Shown here in pieces: positions 1 to 12,158 of a DNA stretch of 64,000 nt. A program made the position numbers and the translations under genes. Positions within the stretch are counted from its first letter, which is position 1, and the number at the start of each line of letters is the position of its first letter. Below the pieces are notes generated by a model, which saw nothing but the letters and a program-made list of their open reading frames with translations, did no database searches and was not told the DNA's origin. Origin of the DNA: Labilithrix sp. (GTDB lineage: Bacteria; Myxococcota_A; Polyangia; Polyangiales; Polyangiaceae); NCBI GenBank assembly GCA_026128965.1, contig JAHCIY010000002.1, positions 1,808,468-1,872,467 of the forward strand, read 5' to 3'.

Positions 1-513
1 GCGCCCGGCGGACGGACGCCACGCGCGCCCCGCCCACGTGAACCCGTCGCGCGAGACCTCGAAGAGGGCGCCCTTGTTCAGCGCGGCCGGCGTGCGCACG
101 ACCCGCTCGAGCCAGAACCCGCCGCGCCCTCCGCCGCCGATCTCGAGGTCGCCTTCGATCCATCCGCGCGAGGTGCGCGGCAGCCCTTCGAGCAGCGCGG
201 GCTCGATCGTCGCGGTGCGAGGCGCGCGCGGATCGGCCGCGAGCGCCTGCGCGGTGGGGCGGACGAGCGCGATGGCCTGCGCGGCGCGTGCCGTCTGCTT
301 GCCGGTCCACGCGCCGGCCTCGTCGAGCCCGTAGGTCCCGACCACGAGCACCGTCTCGCGGCCGGCCGCGTGCGCGCGGAGCTTCGGGCAGTTGCCTTCG
401 ATCGCGACGGAGAACGCGGAGGTCGGCGCGGGCGCGGCGGCGGGAGTCCCACCTCGGCACGCCGCCACGCACAACGACGTCAGGAGCCCAAGACGGCGCA
501 CGAGTCCCGTCAT
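1..513 (-). CDS. hypothetical lipoprotein, partial; the 5' end is at 513 and the ORF runs off the window start
   Basis: Reverse-strand reading from ATG (rc of cat at 511-513) gives MTGLVRRLGLLTSLCVAAC..., a signal peptide plus lipobox. Composition is protein-like. It is open-ended, so it is absent from the ORF track. Confidence 0.4.
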   Translation of the reverse strand, partial: MTGLVRRLGLLTSLCVAACRGGTPAAAPAPTSAFSVAIEGNCPKLRAHAAGRETVLVVGTYGLDEAGAWTGKQTARAAQAIALVRPTAQALAADPRAPRTATIEPALLEGLPRTSRGWIEGDLEIGGGGRGGFWLERVVRTPAALNKGALFEVSRDGFTWAGRAWRPSAGR

Positions 514-577: not shown

Positions 578-1222
578 ATGAGCGACGAGAGCGACCTCCG
601 CATCAACACGCTTCATCGCTTCGAGAAGCACTCGCCGCGGCTCACGCTGCAGGAGTACTCCCACTGCGAGGTGCCCGCGGGATGCGGCGGCGTCGTGCTC
701 CGCTGGATCGATCCGCGGCTCGGTCCCTCCGCGCGGGTGCGCGTCGTCGCGATCGGCGCCGTCGACACGTGGCTCGACGGCGTCCTGCTCGGTGGTGATC
801 GCGCGCCGCTCGGGCCCGGTCGTCACGTCGTCGCGCTTCGCCTCCGCAGCCTCGGGCGGATGCCGTGGCGCGGGCGCGATCTCGACCTCGCGCCGCCGGT
901 GCCCGTCGCGATCGGCGTCTATCCCGATCGCGGACCTGGCGACCGCGCCGACAACATGCTGCCGATCGCGTCCGGCGTCGTACAGAGGTGGCATCCGGGG
1001 CCGCTCGCGTCGCCGCCGATCGCGCCGGACTTCGACGATCGCTCCTGGCGCGCGGTCGCGCACGCGGACGACGCCGCGCTCGCGTCGCTCCCCGCCGACG
1101 TGCGGCGGCCGTTCGAGCGGCTCGCCGCCGACGGGCTCACGATGCTCGCGCTCGGTGACGCCGGCGCGCCGCTCGACGAAGCGTGGGTCCGGATCTCGTT
1201 CGCGGCGCGGGAGGAGCGATGA
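578..1222 (+). CDS. hypothetical protein (214 aa), first gene of the radical-SAM/FGE operon
   Basis: ATG at 578. The stop overlaps the next start (ATGA at 1219-1222). No recognisable domain. Confidence 0.6.
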   Translation: MSDESDLRINTLHRFEKHSPRLTLQEYSHCEVPAGCGGVVLRWIDPRLGPSARVRVVAIGAVDTWLDGVLLGGDRAPLGPGRHVVALRLRSLGRMPWRGRDLDLAPPVPVAIGVYPDRGPGDRADNMLPIASGVVQRWHPGPLASPPIAPDFDDRSWRAVAHADDAALASLPADVRRPFERLAADGLTMLALGDAGAPLDEAWVRISFAAREER

Positions 1223-2493
1223 CGCGGCCCGCGCTCGTCCTCGTCCCGCAGCACTTCGGGAGCCTCGTCTTCGATCGCCGCACGTCGCGCTACCTCCCGT
1301 TCGATCACGAGACGACCGCGCTCTTCCGCCGCGCGGCCGCGGTCGGGACCTTCGCCGCGATCGAAGAAGAGGAGGACGCGGCGCGGCGCGCGCTCGTCGC
1401 GGACCTCTTCGCGCACTTCGAGGCGGAGGGCTTCTTCCTCCCCGACGGGCGGTTCGCGGGCGAGGTGCGCGCGCCGCACGCCGCGCCGCCGGTCGATCAC
1501 CTCCTCGGGCCGCTCGCGCTCCACCTCGAGGTCATCGCCGCGTGCAACCTGCGCTGCACGCACTGCTTCGCCGGTGCGCTGCCGCGGAAGGCGGACCTCT
1601 CGCTCGCGGAGATCGATCGGCTGTTCGCGGAGCTCGCCGCGCTCGGCACGTTCCGGATCGGGCTCACCGGCGGCGAGCCGCTCCTGCGGAAGGACCTCTT
1701 CGCGATCGTCGACGCCGCGCTCGCGCACGGGCTCCATCCGTGCCTCACGACCAACGGCCTCCTCGTCGACGAAGCGGTCGCGCGATCGTTCTCCGAGCGC
1801 GCGATGGCGTGGGTCAACGTCAGCCTCGACGGCGCGACCGCGGCGACGAACGACGCCGTGCGCGGCGCGGGCACGTTCGACGAGGTCACGCGCCGGCTCC
1901 GCGCGTACGGGCGGCACTTTCGCTTCACCCTCGCGTTCACGATCACGAGCGAGAACGCGGGCGAGGTCGTCGCCTGTGCGGAGCTCGCGCGCGAGCTCGG
2001 GGCGAGCAACGCCGTGTTCCGCCCGCTCTACCCCGTCGGCGTCGCGCGCTCGCGGCCGGACCTCATGCCGACGTTCGAAGAGTACACGCGCGCGCTCGAC
2101 GAGCTCGCGCGGCTCGGTCACGACGTCCACGCGATCGACACGTTCGCGCCGAGCGCGCGCGCCGACGCGCAGGCGAAGACGTTCAGCCCGCCGGGCTGCG
2201 GCGCGGCGAACCTCGTCGCGAGCGTGTCGGCGACGGGCGACGTGAACCCGTGCAGCTTCCTCGGCGCCGCGTTCGAGAGCGGCAACCTCCGCGCGCGATC
2301 GTTCTCCGAGATCTGGCGCGCGGGTCACGCGTTCCGTCGCCTCCGCGCCGCGCAGCCGGGGCCGGATCGCTTCTTCACCGGGTGCCGCGCGCGCTCGCTC
2401 GCCGCGTACGGCGACGTCGACGCTCCCGATCCGTGGGACCGCACGCGCGCGCGGCCGCCGCTCGCGACGATGCACCTGCCGGTGCTGCGATGA
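1219..2493 (+). CDS. radical SAM enzyme with C-terminal SPASM/twitch-like Cys region and N-terminal PqqD/RRE-like segment
   Basis: The CNLRCTHC motif is the CX3CX2C radical SAM signature; GLTGGEPLL is also present. C-terminal cysteines sit in GCGAAN, NPCSF and TGCRA contexts. The N-terminus VLVPQHFGSLVFDRRTSRYLPFDHETTALF resembles the PqqD-like RiPP recognition element. GGGAGGAG Shine-Dalgarno upstream; ATGA overlaps on both sides. Confidence 0.85.
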   Translation: MTRPALVLVPQHFGSLVFDRRTSRYLPFDHETTALFRRAAAVGTFAAIEEEEDAARRALVADLFAHFEAEGFFLPDGRFAGEVRAPHAAPPVDHLLGPLALHLEVIAACNLRCTHCFAGALPRKADLSLAEIDRLFAELAALGTFRIGLTGGEPLLRKDLFAIVDAALAHGLHPCLTTNGLLVDEAVARSFSERAMAWVNVSLDGATAATNDAVRGAGTFDEVTRRLRAYGRHFRFTLAFTITSENAGEVVACAELARELGASNAVFRPLYPVGVARSRPDLMPTFEEYTRALDELARLGHDVHAIDTFAPSARADAQAKTFSPPGCGAANLVASVSATGDVNPCSFLGAAFESGNLRARSFSEIWRAGHAFRRLRAAQPGPDRFFTGCRARSLAAYGDVDAPDPWDRTRARPPLATMHLPVLR

Positions 2494-3566
2494 GCTTCGA
2501 TCCCGAGTCCATCCTCGCGGCGGGAGGTCCCGGCTCGATCGACGAAGGCGAGCGCTGCCTCGTCGCGGCGGACTGGTTCCTGAGCCGCGGCGAGCGCGCC
2601 CTCGCCGCGTCGGCGCTCGATCGCGCGTACGGTCTCCTCCCGAACGACGAAGGCGTCGCGCGCCAGCGCCGCGCGGTCCTCGACGAGCTCGCGATCGACG
2701 AGCACGGCCTCCGCTTCCGCTACGTCCCCGCCGGCACGTTCCTCATGGGCTCGGCGACGGGCGATCCGGACGAGCGGCCGGTCCATCGCCGTCGCGTCGC
2801 CGCGTTCTGGATCACGGACGTGCCGCTGACGTGGGCGGCGTACTGCGCGTTGCTCGGCTGGAGCCCGCCGCCGGACGGTTCTCCTTCGGACGACGATCCG
2901 TCGCTCCAGCAAGAAGACGACGAAGGTTTCGTGCGTCCGGCGTTCATGCTCCGCGAGCTCGGGAAGATCCGCCTCCAGTACTGCGAAGGCGACACGCCCA
3001 CCGCGTTCGACTGGCGCTACCACTACGAGCGCGCAGAAGAGGACCCGCCCACGTACGACCGGAAGCCGCTCGTCGCGATCAGCGCATACGACGCGGAGGA
3101 GCTCGCGGCGGCGCTCTCGCGGCGGAGCACGGATGCGAGCTACCGCCTGCCCACCGAGGCGGAGTGGGAGAAGGCCGCGCGCGGAGGTCTGCTCGGTCGC
3201 CGCTGGTCATGGGGCGACGAGGCGCCGACGCGCGAGCGCTGCGACTTCGATCGGTTCGGCGCGTTCCACCTCACCGATCCGCGCGCGTATCCGCCGAACG
3301 GCTACGGCCTCCACGCGATGTGCGGCGGCGTCGCGGAGTGGACCGCCGATCGCTACGACGCGCTCGCGTACCACCGCGCGGCGCGAGGCGAGCCGCCCGA
3401 TCCCGACGCGCCCGCGAGGCGCGTCGTTCGCGGCGGCTCGTGGGCCGACTGCGCCGACGCGGTGACGGTCTCGTTCCGCGCCGCGCGGGAGCAAGGATCG
3501 TGGCGGCATCCGGACGTCCACGCGTGGGGCGCCCCCAACATCGGGTTCCGCCTCGTGCGTCGGTGA
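2490..3566 (+). CDS. FGE-sulfatase (SUMF1/EgtB/PvdO) domain protein
   Basis: Motifs FRYVPAGTFLMGS, DERPVHRRRV, RLPTEAEWEKAARGG, GGVAEWT, RGGSW and NIGFRLV match the formylglycine-generating-enzyme fold. The ATG overlaps the upstream stop (ATGA at 2490-2493). Confidence 0.85.
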   Translation: MSFDPESILAAGGPGSIDEGERCLVAADWFLSRGERALAASALDRAYGLLPNDEGVARQRRAVLDELAIDEHGLRFRYVPAGTFLMGSATGDPDERPVHRRRVAAFWITDVPLTWAAYCALLGWSPPPDGSPSDDDPSLQQEDDEGFVRPAFMLRELGKIRLQYCEGDTPTAFDWRYHYERAEEDPPTYDRKPLVAISAYDAEELAAALSRRSTDASYRLPTEAEWEKAARGGLLGRRWSWGDEAPTRERCDFDRFGAFHLTDPRAYPPNGYGLHAMCGGVAEWTADRYDALAYHRAARGEPPDPDAPARRVVRGGSWADCADAVTVSFRAAREQGSWRHPDVHAWGAPNIGFRLVRR

Positions 3567-3571
3567 CGCGC

Positions 3572-4483
3572 TCAGGGGCTCGCGGCGCCGATCTCGATGC
3601 GAGAGACGTCGACGTCGACGTCCGCGTCCCCGTTCTCCGGTGCGGCGAGGCGCGAGGAGATGCAGGTCTGCTGCACCTGGACCCTGATCGGGGCCTTGAG
3701 CGTGGCGCGGCGGGACGGCGTCTCCGGATCGAGGGTGACCGACTGGCCGGCGGCGTCGACGATCGACGCGCGCGAGCACGCGTTGCCGTTGGTGAAGTTC
3801 TTGAAGAAGGTCGCGCCGACGGTGAGCGTGACCGGCGCGTTCGGCAGCTCGGGCGCGATCGTCTTGAGGAGCGTCAGGCCGGTGCCGGCGTACTTGCTCG
3901 CGAGCCCGGGCGTCGACGTCGTCTTCGTCACCTCGACGGAGGTGGCGCTGAACACGACCTCGCCGGCGTAGTACGGGTTGCTCGAGCCGATGACCTTGAT
4001 CGGGGTCGGGAGGCGCTCGTAGCGCGTGCGCGTGGTCGAGAGCGGGTAGCTCGCGCCGCTGCCGTCGACGAGCGTGGCCGCCATGTTGTACCCGTTGCCG
4101 CCCTGCACCTGGACGTCGAACGACGCGAAGCCCTCCCACGTGTCGACGCCCCACTGCTCGAGCGTCCGGTTGGACGCGTGGGTGGGGATCGCGACGCGAC
4201 GGTTGCCGACCGGCACGACGGAGGGCCGCGGCGGCGCGGGGGGCGAGCACACGGAGTCGTCGTGGATCGCGCTCGCCTCGACCGTCTGCGTGAAGTCGGG
4301 CGCCCCGTCGCGCCCGCGGCAGAACACGTCGAAGCGCCCGTCCGGCCTCTGCACGATCGAGACGACGTCCGAGAGCGACGCCTGCTCGCCGGAGCCGACC
4401 TCCTCGCTGGTGGGAGCGGAACAAGCAACCAACGCAACGCCGAGCGCCGCAAGAAGAGAGGTGCGCATAAGGAACACGCGCAC
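3572..4483 (-). CDS. hypothetical lipoprotein
   Basis: N-terminus MRTSLLAALGVALVACS is a signal peptide plus lipobox. Convergent with the upstream operon. Confidence 0.7.
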   Translation of the reverse strand: MRVFLMRTSLLAALGVALVACSAPTSEEVGSGEQASLSDVVSIVQRPDGRFDVFCRGRDGAPDFTQTVEASAIHDDSVCSPPAPPRPSVVPVGNRRVAIPTHASNRTLEQWGVDTWEGFASFDVQVQGGNGYNMAATLVDGSGASYPLSTTRTRYERLPTPIKVIGSSNPYYAGEVVFSATSVEVTKTTSTPGLASKYAGTGLTLLKTIAPELPNAPVTLTVGATFFKNFTNGNACSRASIVDAAGQSVTLDPETPSRRATLKAPIRVQVQQTCISSRLAAPENGDADVDVDVSRIEIGAASP

Positions 4484-6977: not shown

Positions 6978-7700
6978 TCAGCGAACAGGGATGCTGCAGA
7001 CGACGGTGCAGTCGGAGCAGGTCGACGTGCGTCCGTTGCGATCGAGGCACGCGTCGGTAACGGCGTCGGCGATCGCGGGGCAAGCCATGTCGTTCGCGAG
7101 CGAGCGGCACTGCGTGAAGCCGGAGAAGGTGTAGCCAGAGATCACGCTGCTGCCACCACCACCGCCGCCTCCACCACCACCGCCTCCACCACCACCGCCG
7201 CCTCCACCTCCTCCTCCGCCGTTGAGCGAGTCGGACTGCTCGAACGCGATCTCGCAGGGGCCGCCGACGAACCCGAAGAGGCCGATCTCGCGGACGGTCG
7301 CGCCGTCGCCGTTGTTGATCGAGTAGTAGGACGCGATCCTGGAGCCGGGCTCGAGCTGTGGGCCGCGAACGAGGACCGCGGTGATCGGGAGGCGCTGTCC
7401 GGTGACGAGCGACGTGCCGTAGAGGGACATCTGCGTGAGCTGCGCGTTGCACGCGGCCGGCCAGGACATCTTCATGTAGCGACCGCGCACGGGCCGAAGC
7501 GCGCGATGCGGCGTCGCGAGCGTGTTCACGTAGCCGAAGCCGGGCACGCTGATGTTGACGATGTTCTGCCAGCCGGTGAGCGCCTGGTCCGACGTCTCCG
7601 CGACGTCCTCCTCCTCTTCGGAGGGCGCCGCGCAACCCGCGGCCGCAAAGGCACCAAGCACGACCGAAGCGAGGACGAAATATGAGGTCATTTTGAACAC
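6978..7700 (-). CDS. lipoprotein with 23-residue poly-Gly linker and Cys-rich C-terminal domain
   Basis: Signal peptide and lipobox (LGAFAAAGC). The Gly run is encoded by a GGN repeat at about 7150-7220. The C-terminus has 7 Cys. Confidence 0.7.
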   Translation of the reverse strand: MFKMTSYFVLASVVLGAFAAAGCAAPSEEEEDVAETSDQALTGWQNIVNISVPGFGYVNTLATPHRALRPVRGRYMKMSWPAACNAQLTQMSLYGTSLVTGQRLPITAVLVRGPQLEPGSRIASYYSINNGDGATVREIGLFGFVGGPCEIAFEQSDSLNGGGGGGGGGGGGGGGGGGGGGGGSSVISGYTFSGFTQCRSLANDMACPAIADAVTDACLDRNGRTSTCSDCTVVCSIPVR

Positions 7701-7839: not shown

Positions 7840-8860
7840 TGAGACGCGCGCGGTCGCGCGAGTCGCGAGTCGCGAGTCGCGAGTCGGTGCTTGCTCTCGC
7901 GGTCTCGCGGTCTCCGGTCCCCGCGGTCGCGCGAGTCGCGAGTCGCGAGTCGGTGCTTGCTCTCGCGGTCTCGCGGTCTCCGGTCCCTGCGGTCGCGCGA
8001 GTCGCGAGACGCGAGTCGGTGCTTGCTCTCGCGGTCTCCGGTCCCCGCGGTCGCGCGAGTCGCGAGTCGGGATCGCGAGACGCGAGACGATGCTCGGTCC
8101 CGCGGTCGCGAGACGCGAGACGGCGCTCGGTCCCGCGGTCGTGCGCTTCGCGAGACGCGAGACGGCGCTCGGTCCCGCGGTCGTGCGCTTCGCGGGTCGC
8201 GAGATGGTGCTCGGTCTCGCGGTCGTGCGCTTCGCGAGTCGCGAGACGCGAGATGGTGCGCGGTCGCGTGGATCGCGAGACGCGAGACGGCGCTCGGTCT
8301 CGCGGTCGTGCGCTTCGCGGGTCGCGAGATGGTGCTCGGTCTCGCGGTCGTGCGCTTCGCGAGTCGCGAGACGCGAGATGGTGCGCGGTCGCGTGGATCG
8401 CGAGTCGCGAGGTGGTGTTTGGTCCCCGCGGTCGCGCCGATCGCGAGTCGCGGGATGGTGTTCGGTCTCGGTGCCTCGAGGTCGCGCCGATCGCGAGGCG
8501 TGAGGTGCGAGGTGGTGTTTGGTCCCCTCGCTATCCGAACCCGAACGGCGCATTCGTACGCATGAGCGTTTGATATGGGCCTCGCACGGCCTCCGGCCTT
8601 TCGCTACGTCGTCGGTCAGGGGCGCTGGCGGCCTCTGCCTTTCGCTACGTCGTTCCGGGGGCGCGCCGATCGCGAGGCCGCAAGACGCGAGGCGGTGCTC
8701 GTCCCGCGGGCGCGCGGATCGCGAGGCGCGAGGCGCGAGGTGGTGTTGGTCTTGCGGTGATGCCGATCGCGAGTCGCGAGACGGTGCTCGTCTCGCGGTC
8801 ACGCCGCTCGTGTGGTGCGAGGCGTGGTCGGTCCCGCGGTCACGTACGCCCTCCGAGCGC
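7840..8860. repeat. complex tandem repeat array (minisatellite-like), TCGCGAG-rich
   Basis: Near-identical units of about 68-70 bp (cggtcgcgcgagtcgcgagtcgcgagtcggtgcttgctctcgcggtctcgcggtctccggtcccc) are repeated about 3.5 times. This is followed by 42-bp units and a 123-bp unit repeated almost perfectly twice (8189-8311, 8312-8420). ORFs 7701-8573(+) and 7720-8895(-) are repeat artefacts. Confidence 0.85.
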
Positions 8861-11336: not shown

Positions 11337-12158
11337 TCACTCGGGCAGCGGGAACGAGCCGTTGCAGGGGCCGAAGCGACCGTTCGTGTCGTCGCCGCCG
11401 CGGTACCACTTGCCGTCCTTGCACTGCTGCCAGACCTTGTCGAACTTCGACTCGACGCAGGCCCCGGGCTCCATCGTGTCCTGCAGCGTGTTCGAGAAGC
11501 AGCCGCCGACGATCGCGGCCGGGGGCGGCGGCGGCGCGGGCGTCGCGGGATCGGGCTCGCTCGGCGAGCCGGGCGTCGCGGGATCGGGCGTGCTCGGCGC
11601 GGGCGTGGGCGCCGGCGCGCTCTCCGCTTCGTTCACGTCGTCCTCGGTCGGCTCGGGCATCGACACCGGCGTCGTCACGACGTCGGTCCCGGGCTGCGTC
11701 GCGGCCGGCGGCGGCGGCGGCTTCATGCGATCGCACTCGGACTTGTGCGCCGTGTAGCTCGACCAGGTCTCGATCCCCTCGGCCTCGAAGATCGCGCGGG
11801 CGCACTGCGCGTTGAGGGCCGGATCGTAGAGCTCCTCCGTGCTGTTCGGGCAGCCGTCGAGCTCGCCGACGTACTTGCTCGCGATCTGGAAGAGGCCGCG
11901 CTTCACGTTGCGGCCGCTGCGGTCGAGGGCGCGGTCGTAGTAGCTCGACTCGTACTTCGCGGTGCAGAGCATCTTGCCGATCGCGCTCTCCTCGAAGCCG
12001 GCGGCGCGGAGCTCGCTCGAGACCTGCGACGGCGAGAGGCGGGTCCCGGTGAGCAACTTCACGTCGCGCCCCGACTCCCCGACCTCTTCGGCGGCGCAGC
12101 CGACGAGCACAGCGAGGAGAGAGGCAACAGCGACCCGGAGGAAGGTGGCGGCGTTCAC
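11337..12158 (-). CDS. C-type lysozyme/alpha-lactalbumin (GH22)-like lipoprotein with Pro-rich linker and Cys-rich C-terminal domain
   Basis: Lipobox LVGC. CTAKYESSYY...RGLFQIASKY...C...QCARAIF...EC aligns to hen lysozyme CAAKFESNF...YGILQIN...NCAKKIV...RC. The catalytic Glu is conserved and the Asp52-equivalent position appears substituted. Confidence 0.6.
   Translation of the reverse strand: MNAATFLRVAVASLLAVLVGCAAEEVGESGRDVKLLTGTRLSPSQVSSELRAAGFEESAIGKMLCTAKYESSYYDRALDRSGRNVKRGLFQIASKYVGELDGCPNSTEELYDPALNAQCARAIFEAEGIETWSSYTAHKSECDRMKPPPPPAATQPGTDVVTTPVSMPEPTEDDVNEAESAPAPTPAPSTPDPATPGSPSEPDPATPAPPPPPAAIVGGCFSNTLQDTMEPGACVESKFDKVWQQCKDGKWYRGGDDTNGRFGPCNGSFPLPE

Follow-up and report, generated by a model that had tools for sequence, protein, structure and literature searches.

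A conserved three-gene cassette from Labilithrix, pairing a radical SAM enzyme that has a predicted RRE-fold domain with an FGE-fold protein that lacks the copper site, as a probable uncharacterised protein-modification system

Near the start of a 64,000-nucleotide stretch of DNA from Labilithrix sp. (hereafter the window; G+C content ~72%), three co-directional genes on the forward strand form an operon that probably encodes an uncharacterised protein-modification system. The first, g1 (578..1222, +), runs from an ATG at 578 to a TGA at 1220-1222 and encodes a protein of 214 amino acids (aa), predicted to be cytoplasmic, which is the candidate substrate. From its ATG at 1219-1221, g2 (1219..2493, +) encodes a predicted radical S-adenosylmethionine (SAM) enzyme of 424 aa, and g3 (2490..3566, +), starting at the ATG at 2490-2492, encodes a 358-aa protein with the formylglycine-generating enzyme (FGE)-sulfatase fold, a C-type-lectin-like fold abbreviated FGS. 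Reading of the sequence places ATGA stop/start overlaps at 1219-1222 (+), where the g1 stop overlaps the g2 ATG, and at 2490-2493 (+), between g2 and g3. These are the coordinates given in the original prediction, whose description of a tightly coupled operon also holds, as overlapping or near-overlapping junctions are usual across the family. The strong Shine-Dalgarno sequence that it assigned to g2 is borne out only in part: the element GGGAGGAG at 1209-1216, which together with the overlap spans 1209..1222 (+), is Shine-Dalgarno-like but more tightly spaced than usual, since it lies 2 nt from the g2 ATG (4 nt from its GGAGG core).

The operon is bounded on both sides. At the 5' boundary lies a divergent lipoprotein gene (window 1-501, -), separated from g1 by a 76-nt gap, while at the 3' boundary a convergent gene (3572-4483, -) begins 5 nt past the g3 stop. 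The public annotation of this metagenome-assembled genome (MAG) puts the g3 start 30 codons further 3' (window 2580 vs 2490; position 11362 of locus L088); the ATG at 2490 is favoured because overlapping junctions occur family-wide and because aa 38-78 are conserved.

The arrangement of the trio is far beyond chance. Scanning genomes with the radical SAM alignment yielded 80 loci. Of the 81 genome loci found with the radical SAM protein, 76 have enough upstream sequence, and in 73 of these g1 stands directly upstream of g2, mostly across gaps of -13 to +60 nt; of the 77 with enough downstream sequence, 69 to 72 carry g3 directly downstream of g2. Gene order is kept in about 90% of the 81 loci, with overlaps of 1-13 nt typical at the junctions. 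Seeding the search with g1 instead, g2 adjoins g1 in at least 46 of 53 metagenome loci. Departures from this order include g1-g3-g2 at loci L018 and L020, and locus L051, where g3 lies upstream on the other strand. The hosts belong to at least six phyla (Myxococcota, Actinomycetota, Chloroflexota, Planctomycetota, Acidobacteriota and Methylomirabilota) and include M. xanthus, Sorangium and Polyangium among the Myxococcota, and Streptomyces, Actinomadura, Thermomonospora, Plantactinospora and Nonomuraea among the Actinomycetota. Conservation of gene order in relatives, on which the original prediction had depended, holds across phyla. The phyletic pattern is patchy and weighted to large-genome, multicellular-type bacteria, and cross-phylum identity of 55-60% suggests horizontal transfer.

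No fourth conserved gene was found within 7.5 kb of the trio, and no protease or exporter is conserved with it. A Ser/Thr kinase, the next-largest neighbour cluster, was rejected as a fourth member, as it occurs at only 10 loci and has many myxobacterial paralogues. Carriage by phages or plasmids was likewise set aside, the trio having no match among IMG/VR viral contigs or PLSDB plasmids. These results suggest that the trio is a self-contained, horizontally spread three-gene cassette. At 50% identity the g1 proteins of this family fall into at least 360 clusters, and its radical SAM homologues number more than 1,250.

The conservation of g1 is concentrated at its N-terminus. The protein comprises a leader-like segment (about aa 5-22) with the motif L-x-x-N-x-L-H-R-F-x-K, a cysteine hairpin (aa 23-44) and a beta-sandwich (aa ~45-214), the last predicted to be well folded and lectin-like. 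Its only two cysteines, C30 and C36, lie in the sequence HCEVPAGCGG, in agreement with the EVPAGCGG context reported earlier; the codons for H29-C30-E-V-P-A-G-C36-G-G occupy 662..691 (+), and this invariant two-cysteine loop is the proposed modification site. CE[VI]PAGCGG is identical in 243 of the 244 available g1 family sequences. The first ~45 residues hardly vary in the family alignment, whereas what follows them is variable: mean pairwise identity reaches 0.91 in the cysteine loop (aa 28-38; 0.30 for the rest of g1), 0.82 in the hairpin (aa 23-44) and 0.53 in the leader-like segment (aa 5-22), and is 0.30 in the beta-sandwich. Corresponding values are 0.75 for the N-terminal beta-sheet of g2, 0.67 for its radical SAM core and 0.54 for the FGE domain of g3, so that by pairwise identity the g1 hairpin and loop, followed by that beta-sheet, are the most conserved stretches of the cassette. 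Modelled alone, the g1 N-terminus yields a low-confidence structure prediction; high conservation with low confidence is the pattern expected if partner enzymes, rather than the segment's own fold, constrain it.

The g1 protein has no match in Pfam, NCBIfam or PADLOC. A profile of its N-terminal module recovers, at 50% identity, 362 representative clusters; nearly all of the 150 that were listed have the module beginning at most a few residues from the N-terminus, in proteins of ~190-235 aa. One family member has a duplicated sandwich, while P0245 (1,076 aa, 14 apparent motif repeats) was discarded as a spurious repetitive sequence. Regarding the substrate, the original prediction had left the choice between g1 and an unannotated short peptide. 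Up to a distance of 700 nt on each side of the trio, open reading frames (ORFs) of 15-100 aa form only genus-level or low-complexity clusters, none of them conserved beside the trio; the hidden precursor peptide was rejected on this basis, and g1 is the best substrate candidate.

For g2, the Pfam radical SAM model PF04055 matches at 6e-24 (85.5 bits against a gathering cut-off of 29.5), the cluster motif C109-X3-C113-X2-C116 is invariant in 28 homologues, and so is the SAM-binding GGEP motif (TGGEPL). The CX3CX2C motif and the score above the gathering threshold place g2 in the radical SAM superfamily. Over the C-terminal region, the SPASM model PF13186 exceeds its cut-off of 21.5 bits with a score of 30.4, the match being limited to model positions 1-55 of 67. 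Seven cysteines are invariant across the 28 homologues (C109, C113, C116, C175, C327, C345 and C389), and C253 is conserved in at least 90% of them. The full SPASM motif has seven cysteines, CX9-15GX4C ... CX2CX5CX3C ... C, and binds two auxiliary 4Fe-4S clusters; in g2 only its first half, C327-X12-G-X4-C345, and C389 are conserved, the latter sitting in GGCRAR and aligning with the GGC of PqqE. Where PqqE and CteB have the CxxC segment that binds their auxiliary cluster II, this family shows an alignment gap. Because this segment is missing, the domain is regarded as twitch-like with one auxiliary-cluster site, and g2 is predicted to hold a single auxiliary cluster with three dedicated cysteines. 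The earlier assignment to the radical SAM/SPASM enzymes consequently survives for the core, the PF13186 match and the twitch-like C-terminus, with the SPASM domain cut to one auxiliary-cluster site.

The nearest relatives of g2 are peptide maturases. Its best NCBIfam match is MftC (TIGR03962, 165.3 bits against a cut-off of 265), and no NCBIfam equivalog was found for g1, g2 or g3. Profile matches in the PDB are PqqE (6c8v) at 6e-23, CteB at 1e-18, SkfB at 2e-18 and the anaerobic sulfatase-maturating enzyme (anSME) at 4e-11, and anSME is not among the 25 best NCBIfam matches. By these comparisons g2 appears nearer to MftC, PqqE and SkfB than to anSME, which speaks against reading it as an anSME. 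PADLOC v2 returned only weak viperin-core matches for g2. The g2 protein is 100% identical to one encoded in a Labilithrix sp. MAG of the Myxococcota.

The N-terminal domain of g2 (aa 1-98; 1219..1512, +) was initially described as resembling the PqqD-like RiPP recognition element (RRE; RiPP, a peptide made by the ribosome and modified after translation), a description to be dropped if the segment failed RRE/PqqD profiles. The profiles did fail: PF05402 gives no match at E <= 1 to whole g2 and none at E <= 10 to 22 isolated N-terminal domains of the family, and a PDB search with the profile of those 22 domains returned chance matches only. The apparent SkfB alignment over the g2 N-terminus carries no independent score. 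To the letter, then, the description falls, whereas structure prediction confidently recovers an RRE fold at aa 1-~90, a winged helix of three beta-strands followed by three helices whose closest structural matches are leader-binding RREs. The domain is accordingly modelled as an RRE by fold, though not by sequence. RREs bind peptide substrates, the leader being added as a further strand along beta-3.

The g3 protein matches PF03781 at 2e-43 (149 bits) over aa 79-357, covering model positions 8-255 of 255, and PDB FGEs match it at 3e-19. The complete FGE-sulfatase fold attributed to it from the outset is thus well supported by homology, preceded by a helical N-terminal extension of ~78 aa without a Pfam match and accompanied by a family-specific insert, NKIRLQYCE. 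An FGE binds Cu(I) through two active-site cysteines, C336 and C341 in the human enzyme, and this pair is absent from g3 across a 77-sequence alignment. The stretch 'GGSYL-CHDSYC' of Streptomyces coelicolor FGE aligns with 'GGSWADCADAVT' in g3, so that the catalytic 'C-HDSY-C' becomes 'C-ADAV-T', with T326 at the second cysteine. Position 326 is never C in the alignment, being T, R, S or G; the first position (C321) is C in 61 of the 77 sequences (79%) and otherwise D, G, S, A or P, with D in Phototrophicus. The FGE Ser and Arg are kept, as judged from the alignment to the S. coelicolor enzyme. The best NCBIfam matches (GldK, EgtB, SenA and PvdO) all fall in the C-terminal FGE-like part and far below their cut-offs: the EgtB model TIGR03440 scores 50.6 bits against 360 and the SenA model 46 bits against 420. 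EgtB, OvoA and SenA are recognised by a DinB domain together with an equivalog score; Pfam detects no DinB domain in g3, and EgtB/OvoA-type chemistry is disfavoured for that reason. FGE or EgtB chemistry is therefore unlikely for g3 as far as its sequence indicates, and two proposals of the original prediction are left unsupported: that the operon holds one enzyme from each formylglycine route, given that the second cysteine is missing in 77 of 77 sequences, and that g3 might form C-S bonds as EgtB and OvoA do. No PADLOC v2 model matches g3.

Further paralogues of the FGE-sulfatase fold adjoin the trio in some genomes (L089, 10344-11396; L001, 6117-7280, -; L002, 192-905, -), in tandem past g3 in L089 and divergently upstream in Phototrophicus. 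In the source genome, the divergent upstream operon (window 1-501, -; L088 5920-9283, -) codes for a secreted lipoprotein of the FGE-sulfatase fold together with two lipoproteins whose function is not known. This second FGE-fold gene, which lies within 3 kb, was rejected as a part of the trio; belonging to a divergent operon and encoding a secreted lipoprotein, it is probably unrelated.

Taken as a whole, the trio is read as an RRE-guided radical SAM system that modifies the cysteine hairpin of g1 with g3 as a partner and leaves the product protein-bound, an interpretation given slightly better than even chances. The RRE-fold domain of g2 would dock the leader-like segment of g1 (about aa 5-22), placing the adjacent hairpin (H-C-E-V-P-A-G-C-G-G, aa 29-38) in the g2 active site, where the 5'-deoxyadenosyl radical and the single auxiliary Fe-S cluster, held by three conserved cysteines, would install a defined modification. 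In CteB the open iron of the auxiliary cluster binds the substrate cysteine, and SkfB has a single auxiliary cluster. In g2, too, ligation by three cysteines would keep one position of the cluster open to a thiolate of the substrate, on the pattern of CteB and SkfB. By analogy, the most likely product would be an intramolecular cysteine thioether cross-link, or a related oxidation at or beside C30/C36. With its copper-binding cysteine pair lost, g3 is less likely to generate formylglycine than to serve the hairpin as a partner that binds it, as a chaperone or as a non-canonical tailoring factor. Since the core does not vary and neither a protease nor an exporter is conserved with the trio, the modified product would most probably remain attached to the protein.

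Several lines of evidence favour this RRE-guided modification of g1. Whichever gene seeds the search, g1 and g2 are near-obligate neighbours (73/76 and at least 46/53), and the layout of RRE, core and single cluster, together with the PDB matches, fits the sactisynthases SkfB and CteB. Additionally, locus L017 (2618-5147) carries, after its g1-g2-g3, a divergent g1'-g3' pair with no second radical SAM gene. The N-terminus of this g1' (...ELHESHQVPIGCGGAVFRW) has lost the leader motif and C30 and has kept GCGG, which fits the leader and C30 as the part related to the radical SAM enzyme and g1 and g3 as working together.

Other observations count against it. Loci L007 and L029 lack g3, and a few g1 genes (L151 and L149) have no radical SAM gene nearby. 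The RRE of g2 is undetectable by sequence profiles (Pfam, PDB HMM). Within g1, strands 23-29 and 39-44 may belong to the folded sandwich, which would restrict access to the loop, and most RiPPs show the opposite of a core that is invariant behind a leader that is less so; such a pattern would suit a cofactor-type or active-site loop equally well. In g2, the conserved C175 and C253 could complete the ligation of the auxiliary cluster. Neither a radical SAM nor an FGE gene lies within 8 kb of the orphan g1 genes of L151 (7977-9626) and L149, both of which keep CEVPAGCGG intact; judged by eye, the membrane protein encoded next in L151 resembles a rhomboid.

At seven actinomycete loci the trio is embedded in a larger co-directional operon (L021, 5472-13056; L024, L032, L033, L036, L055 and L065), belonging to five Streptomyces, one Actinomycetota MAG and Nonomuraea. 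The composite order is [EAD1-trypsin-like peptidase]-[EAD1+EAD7 adaptor]-g1-g2-g3-[EAD7-NACHT STAND NTPase], where EAD denotes an effector-associated domain and STAND the signal transduction ATPases with numerous domains. The adaptor stop precedes the g1 ATG by 2-9 nt in each of the six loci whose junction was resolved (L065 stands outside this count), the g3 stop and the NACHT ATG share an ATGA in every one of the five Streptomyces, and the peptidase gene is restricted to those five. At one metagenome locus (L086, 9492-15287, -), a ternary conflict system of ivWA-helical_N/ivWA, bpMoxR and fvmX7 follows immediately downstream on the opposite strand; upstream of that trio are genes for a HemN-like radical SAM protein, a WGR protein and an ATP-grasp protein. 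Conflict-type neighbours occur at 8 of roughly 85 long loci, and elsewhere the contexts are mostly ordinary and variable. The EAD/NACHT link is real in the actinomycete lineage, and it is not general. EADs are adaptor domains of NTPase conflict systems, FGS domains serve as non-enzymatic binding effectors in many such systems, and radical SAM-SPASM peptide-processing accessories have been described for them (Kaur et al. 2020, PMC7159879); the trio itself was not found in the main text of that paper. Nesting of this kind suggests a biological framing different from the one first put forward. Among known defence systems no counterpart was found, PADLOC v2 being negative for g1, g3 and the NACHT and adaptor neighbours alike and returning only the weak viperin-core matches for g2.

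This context bears on a possible role of the trio as the effector or sensor cassette of NTPase-based, NLR-like (nucleotide-binding leucine-rich repeat receptor-like) conflict systems, a suggestion that concerns role rather than chemistry, is compatible with the modification mechanism, and is considered unlikely. The catalytically dead FGS of g3 would bind an invader or self molecule, and the matured g1 would act as effector or signal, possibly released by a protease. The position of the trio between adaptor and EAD7-NACHT NTPase at seven loci, the EAD1-trypsin-like peptidase upstream in five Streptomyces, the ivWA, bpMoxR and fvmX7 genes at the metagenome locus, and the published occurrence of EADs, FGS effectors and radical SAM-SPASM accessories in NTPase systems (Kaur et al. 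2020, PMC7159879) all suit such a role, as do the patchy distribution in multicellular-type hosts and the 55-60% cross-phylum identity. Yet of roughly 85 long loci only 8 have neighbours of this type, g1, g3, the NACHT protein and the adaptor all lack a PADLOC match, no copy of the trio was found in IMG/VR (viral contigs) or PLSDB (plasmids), g3 is conserved rather than hypervariable, and the trio itself contains no EAD. Similarly doubtful is the fuller proposal that the trio makes a new protein-bound radical-SAM modification, that the copper-less FGE-fold protein reads or uses it, and that the whole is a portable effector or sensor for NLR-like EAD/NACHT conflict systems of multicellular-type hosts; there, modification of the CE[VI]PAGCGG hairpin could yield a cross-link, a protein-derived cofactor or a reactive centre.

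A different explanation, rather less probable again, is that g1 is a structural or regulatory subunit of a g1-g2-g3 complex, or a carrier of a metal or cofactor through H13, H29, C30 and C36, the true substrate being either a small molecule or some protein or peptide whose gene lies elsewhere. A metal or Fe-S site could be formed by the invariant His/Cys loop, which in its invariance is closer to an active site than to the core of a RiPP; the lectin-like sandwich of g1 is well folded, and the trio travels with no conserved protease or exporter. Against this, an RRE fused to g2 points to a peptide-like ligand, the g1 N-terminus is the sole conserved, disordered, peptide-like segment nearby, no further neighbouring gene is conserved, and the nearest relatives of g2 all act on ribosomal peptides. 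The original idea of a dual route to formylglycine, in which g2 (anaerobic) and g3 (aerobic) each convert a g1 cysteine in a non-sulfatase protein, now appears very improbable. Radical SAM enzymes of the anSME type and FGEs both convert Cys to formylglycine, g1 has two invariant cysteines, and of the FGE residues g3 retains the Ser and the Arg, together with the first Cys in 79% of the family. The absence of a nearby sulfatase, which formed part of the same idea, is confirmed: with the PROSITE pattern, no sulfatase signature was found in the 64-kb window, and one was found at only 1 of 83 loci. However, the second copper-binding cysteine is always, and the first often, absent from g3, g1 has no C-x-P-x-R motif, and g2 is nearer to MftC, PqqE and SkfB than to anSME, whose second auxiliary cluster it lacks.

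Among known systems, the cassette would be closest in function to the RRE-dependent radical SAM maturases exemplified by SkfB and CteB. These sactisynthases share with g2 the order of N-terminal RRE, CX3CX2C core and C-terminal auxiliary-cluster domain, and the cysteines of the candidate substrate g1 suggest thioether chemistry as well. Sequence similarity to g2 is low, however, and their substrate is a short variable peptide, whereas the presumed substrate here is a 214-aa protein with an invariant core and a folded domain; the trio further differs in its obligate FGE-fold partner and in having neither protease nor exporter. By sequence, the closest matches of g2 are MftC and PqqE (TIGR03962, 165 bits; 6c8v, 6e-23), and the invariant target motif of g1 resembles MftA and PqqA in implying one defined product. 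Nonetheless, g2 falls below the curated MftC and PqqE cut-offs (265 and 381 bits), its RRE is fused whereas MftC and PqqE use a separate MftB or PqqD, PqqE auxiliary cluster II is absent, and the trio is accompanied by no MftA- or PqqA-like peptide and no downstream pathway genes. Assignment to MftC itself fails on score (165.3 against 265 bits) and on the lack of a conserved short ORF or separate RRE gene.

A conceptual parallel is offered by QhpD, a radical SAM/SPASM maturase that installs Cys thioethers in QhpC, a protein subunit of quinohemoprotein amine dehydrogenase. In that system the maturase acts on a protein and not on a released peptide; the likeness is one of concept, as the trio has no QhpA, QhpB or QhpG context and the target fold differs. 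The anSME and FGE systems share with the trio the radical SAM/SPASM superfamily and the FGE-sulfatase fold, and differ in that the trio lacks a sulfatase, a CxPxR motif and the Cu(I) cysteine pair. For g2 in particular, the single auxiliary-cluster site, the distant PDB match to anSME (4e-11) and the absence from the window of a sulfatase with (C/S)xPxR all argue against anSME identity. The NTPase conflict systems of Kaur et al. 2020 (PMC7159879) resemble the trio in the EAD/NACHT operons at seven loci and in a non-catalytic FGS; their modules use C-terminal FxSxx-type peptides and an FxsB-type enzyme, and their FGS domains are mostly vWA-fused or diversified by diversity-generating retroelements (DGR), unlike g3. 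By sequence comparison, then, the trio falls outside MftC, PqqE, anSME, FGE and EgtB. It is set apart by a candidate substrate that is a full-size protein with an invariant core, by an obligate and catalytically disabled FGE-fold partner, and by its occasional embedding in NACHT/EAD operons. The earlier judgement that the triad is an undescribed arrangement stands, as no description was found in Pfam, NCBIfam, PADLOC or the full-text literature searched (subscription journals outside its scope).

Elsewhere in the window, positions 7847-8844 consist of dense tandem repeats with periods of about 42, 66 and 125 nt and a strong G-over-C and T-over-A strand skew, and they yield long Arg/Ser-rich artefactual ORFs on both strands. 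A 240-aa ORF at 6978-7700 (-) has an apparently hydrophobic N-terminus, an unbroken run of ~24 Gly and no Pfam match.

If the proposed modification system is real, it represents a large family without an assigned function, whose hosts include tractable ones such as Myxococcus xanthus, Sorangium and Streptomyces. It would mean that an RRE-dependent radical SAM enzyme works on a full-size protein and not on a short peptide, that the invariant target motif corresponds to one defined chemical product, as for pyrroloquinoline quinone (PQQ) or mycofactocin, and that a non-catalytic FGE-fold protein has its first functional partner. The g2 domain also illustrates that RRE domains can escape current sequence profiles and yet be recovered by structure prediction. 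Finally, the EAD/NACHT operons provide an entry point for asking whether protein radical chemistry takes part in bacterial NLR-like immunity.

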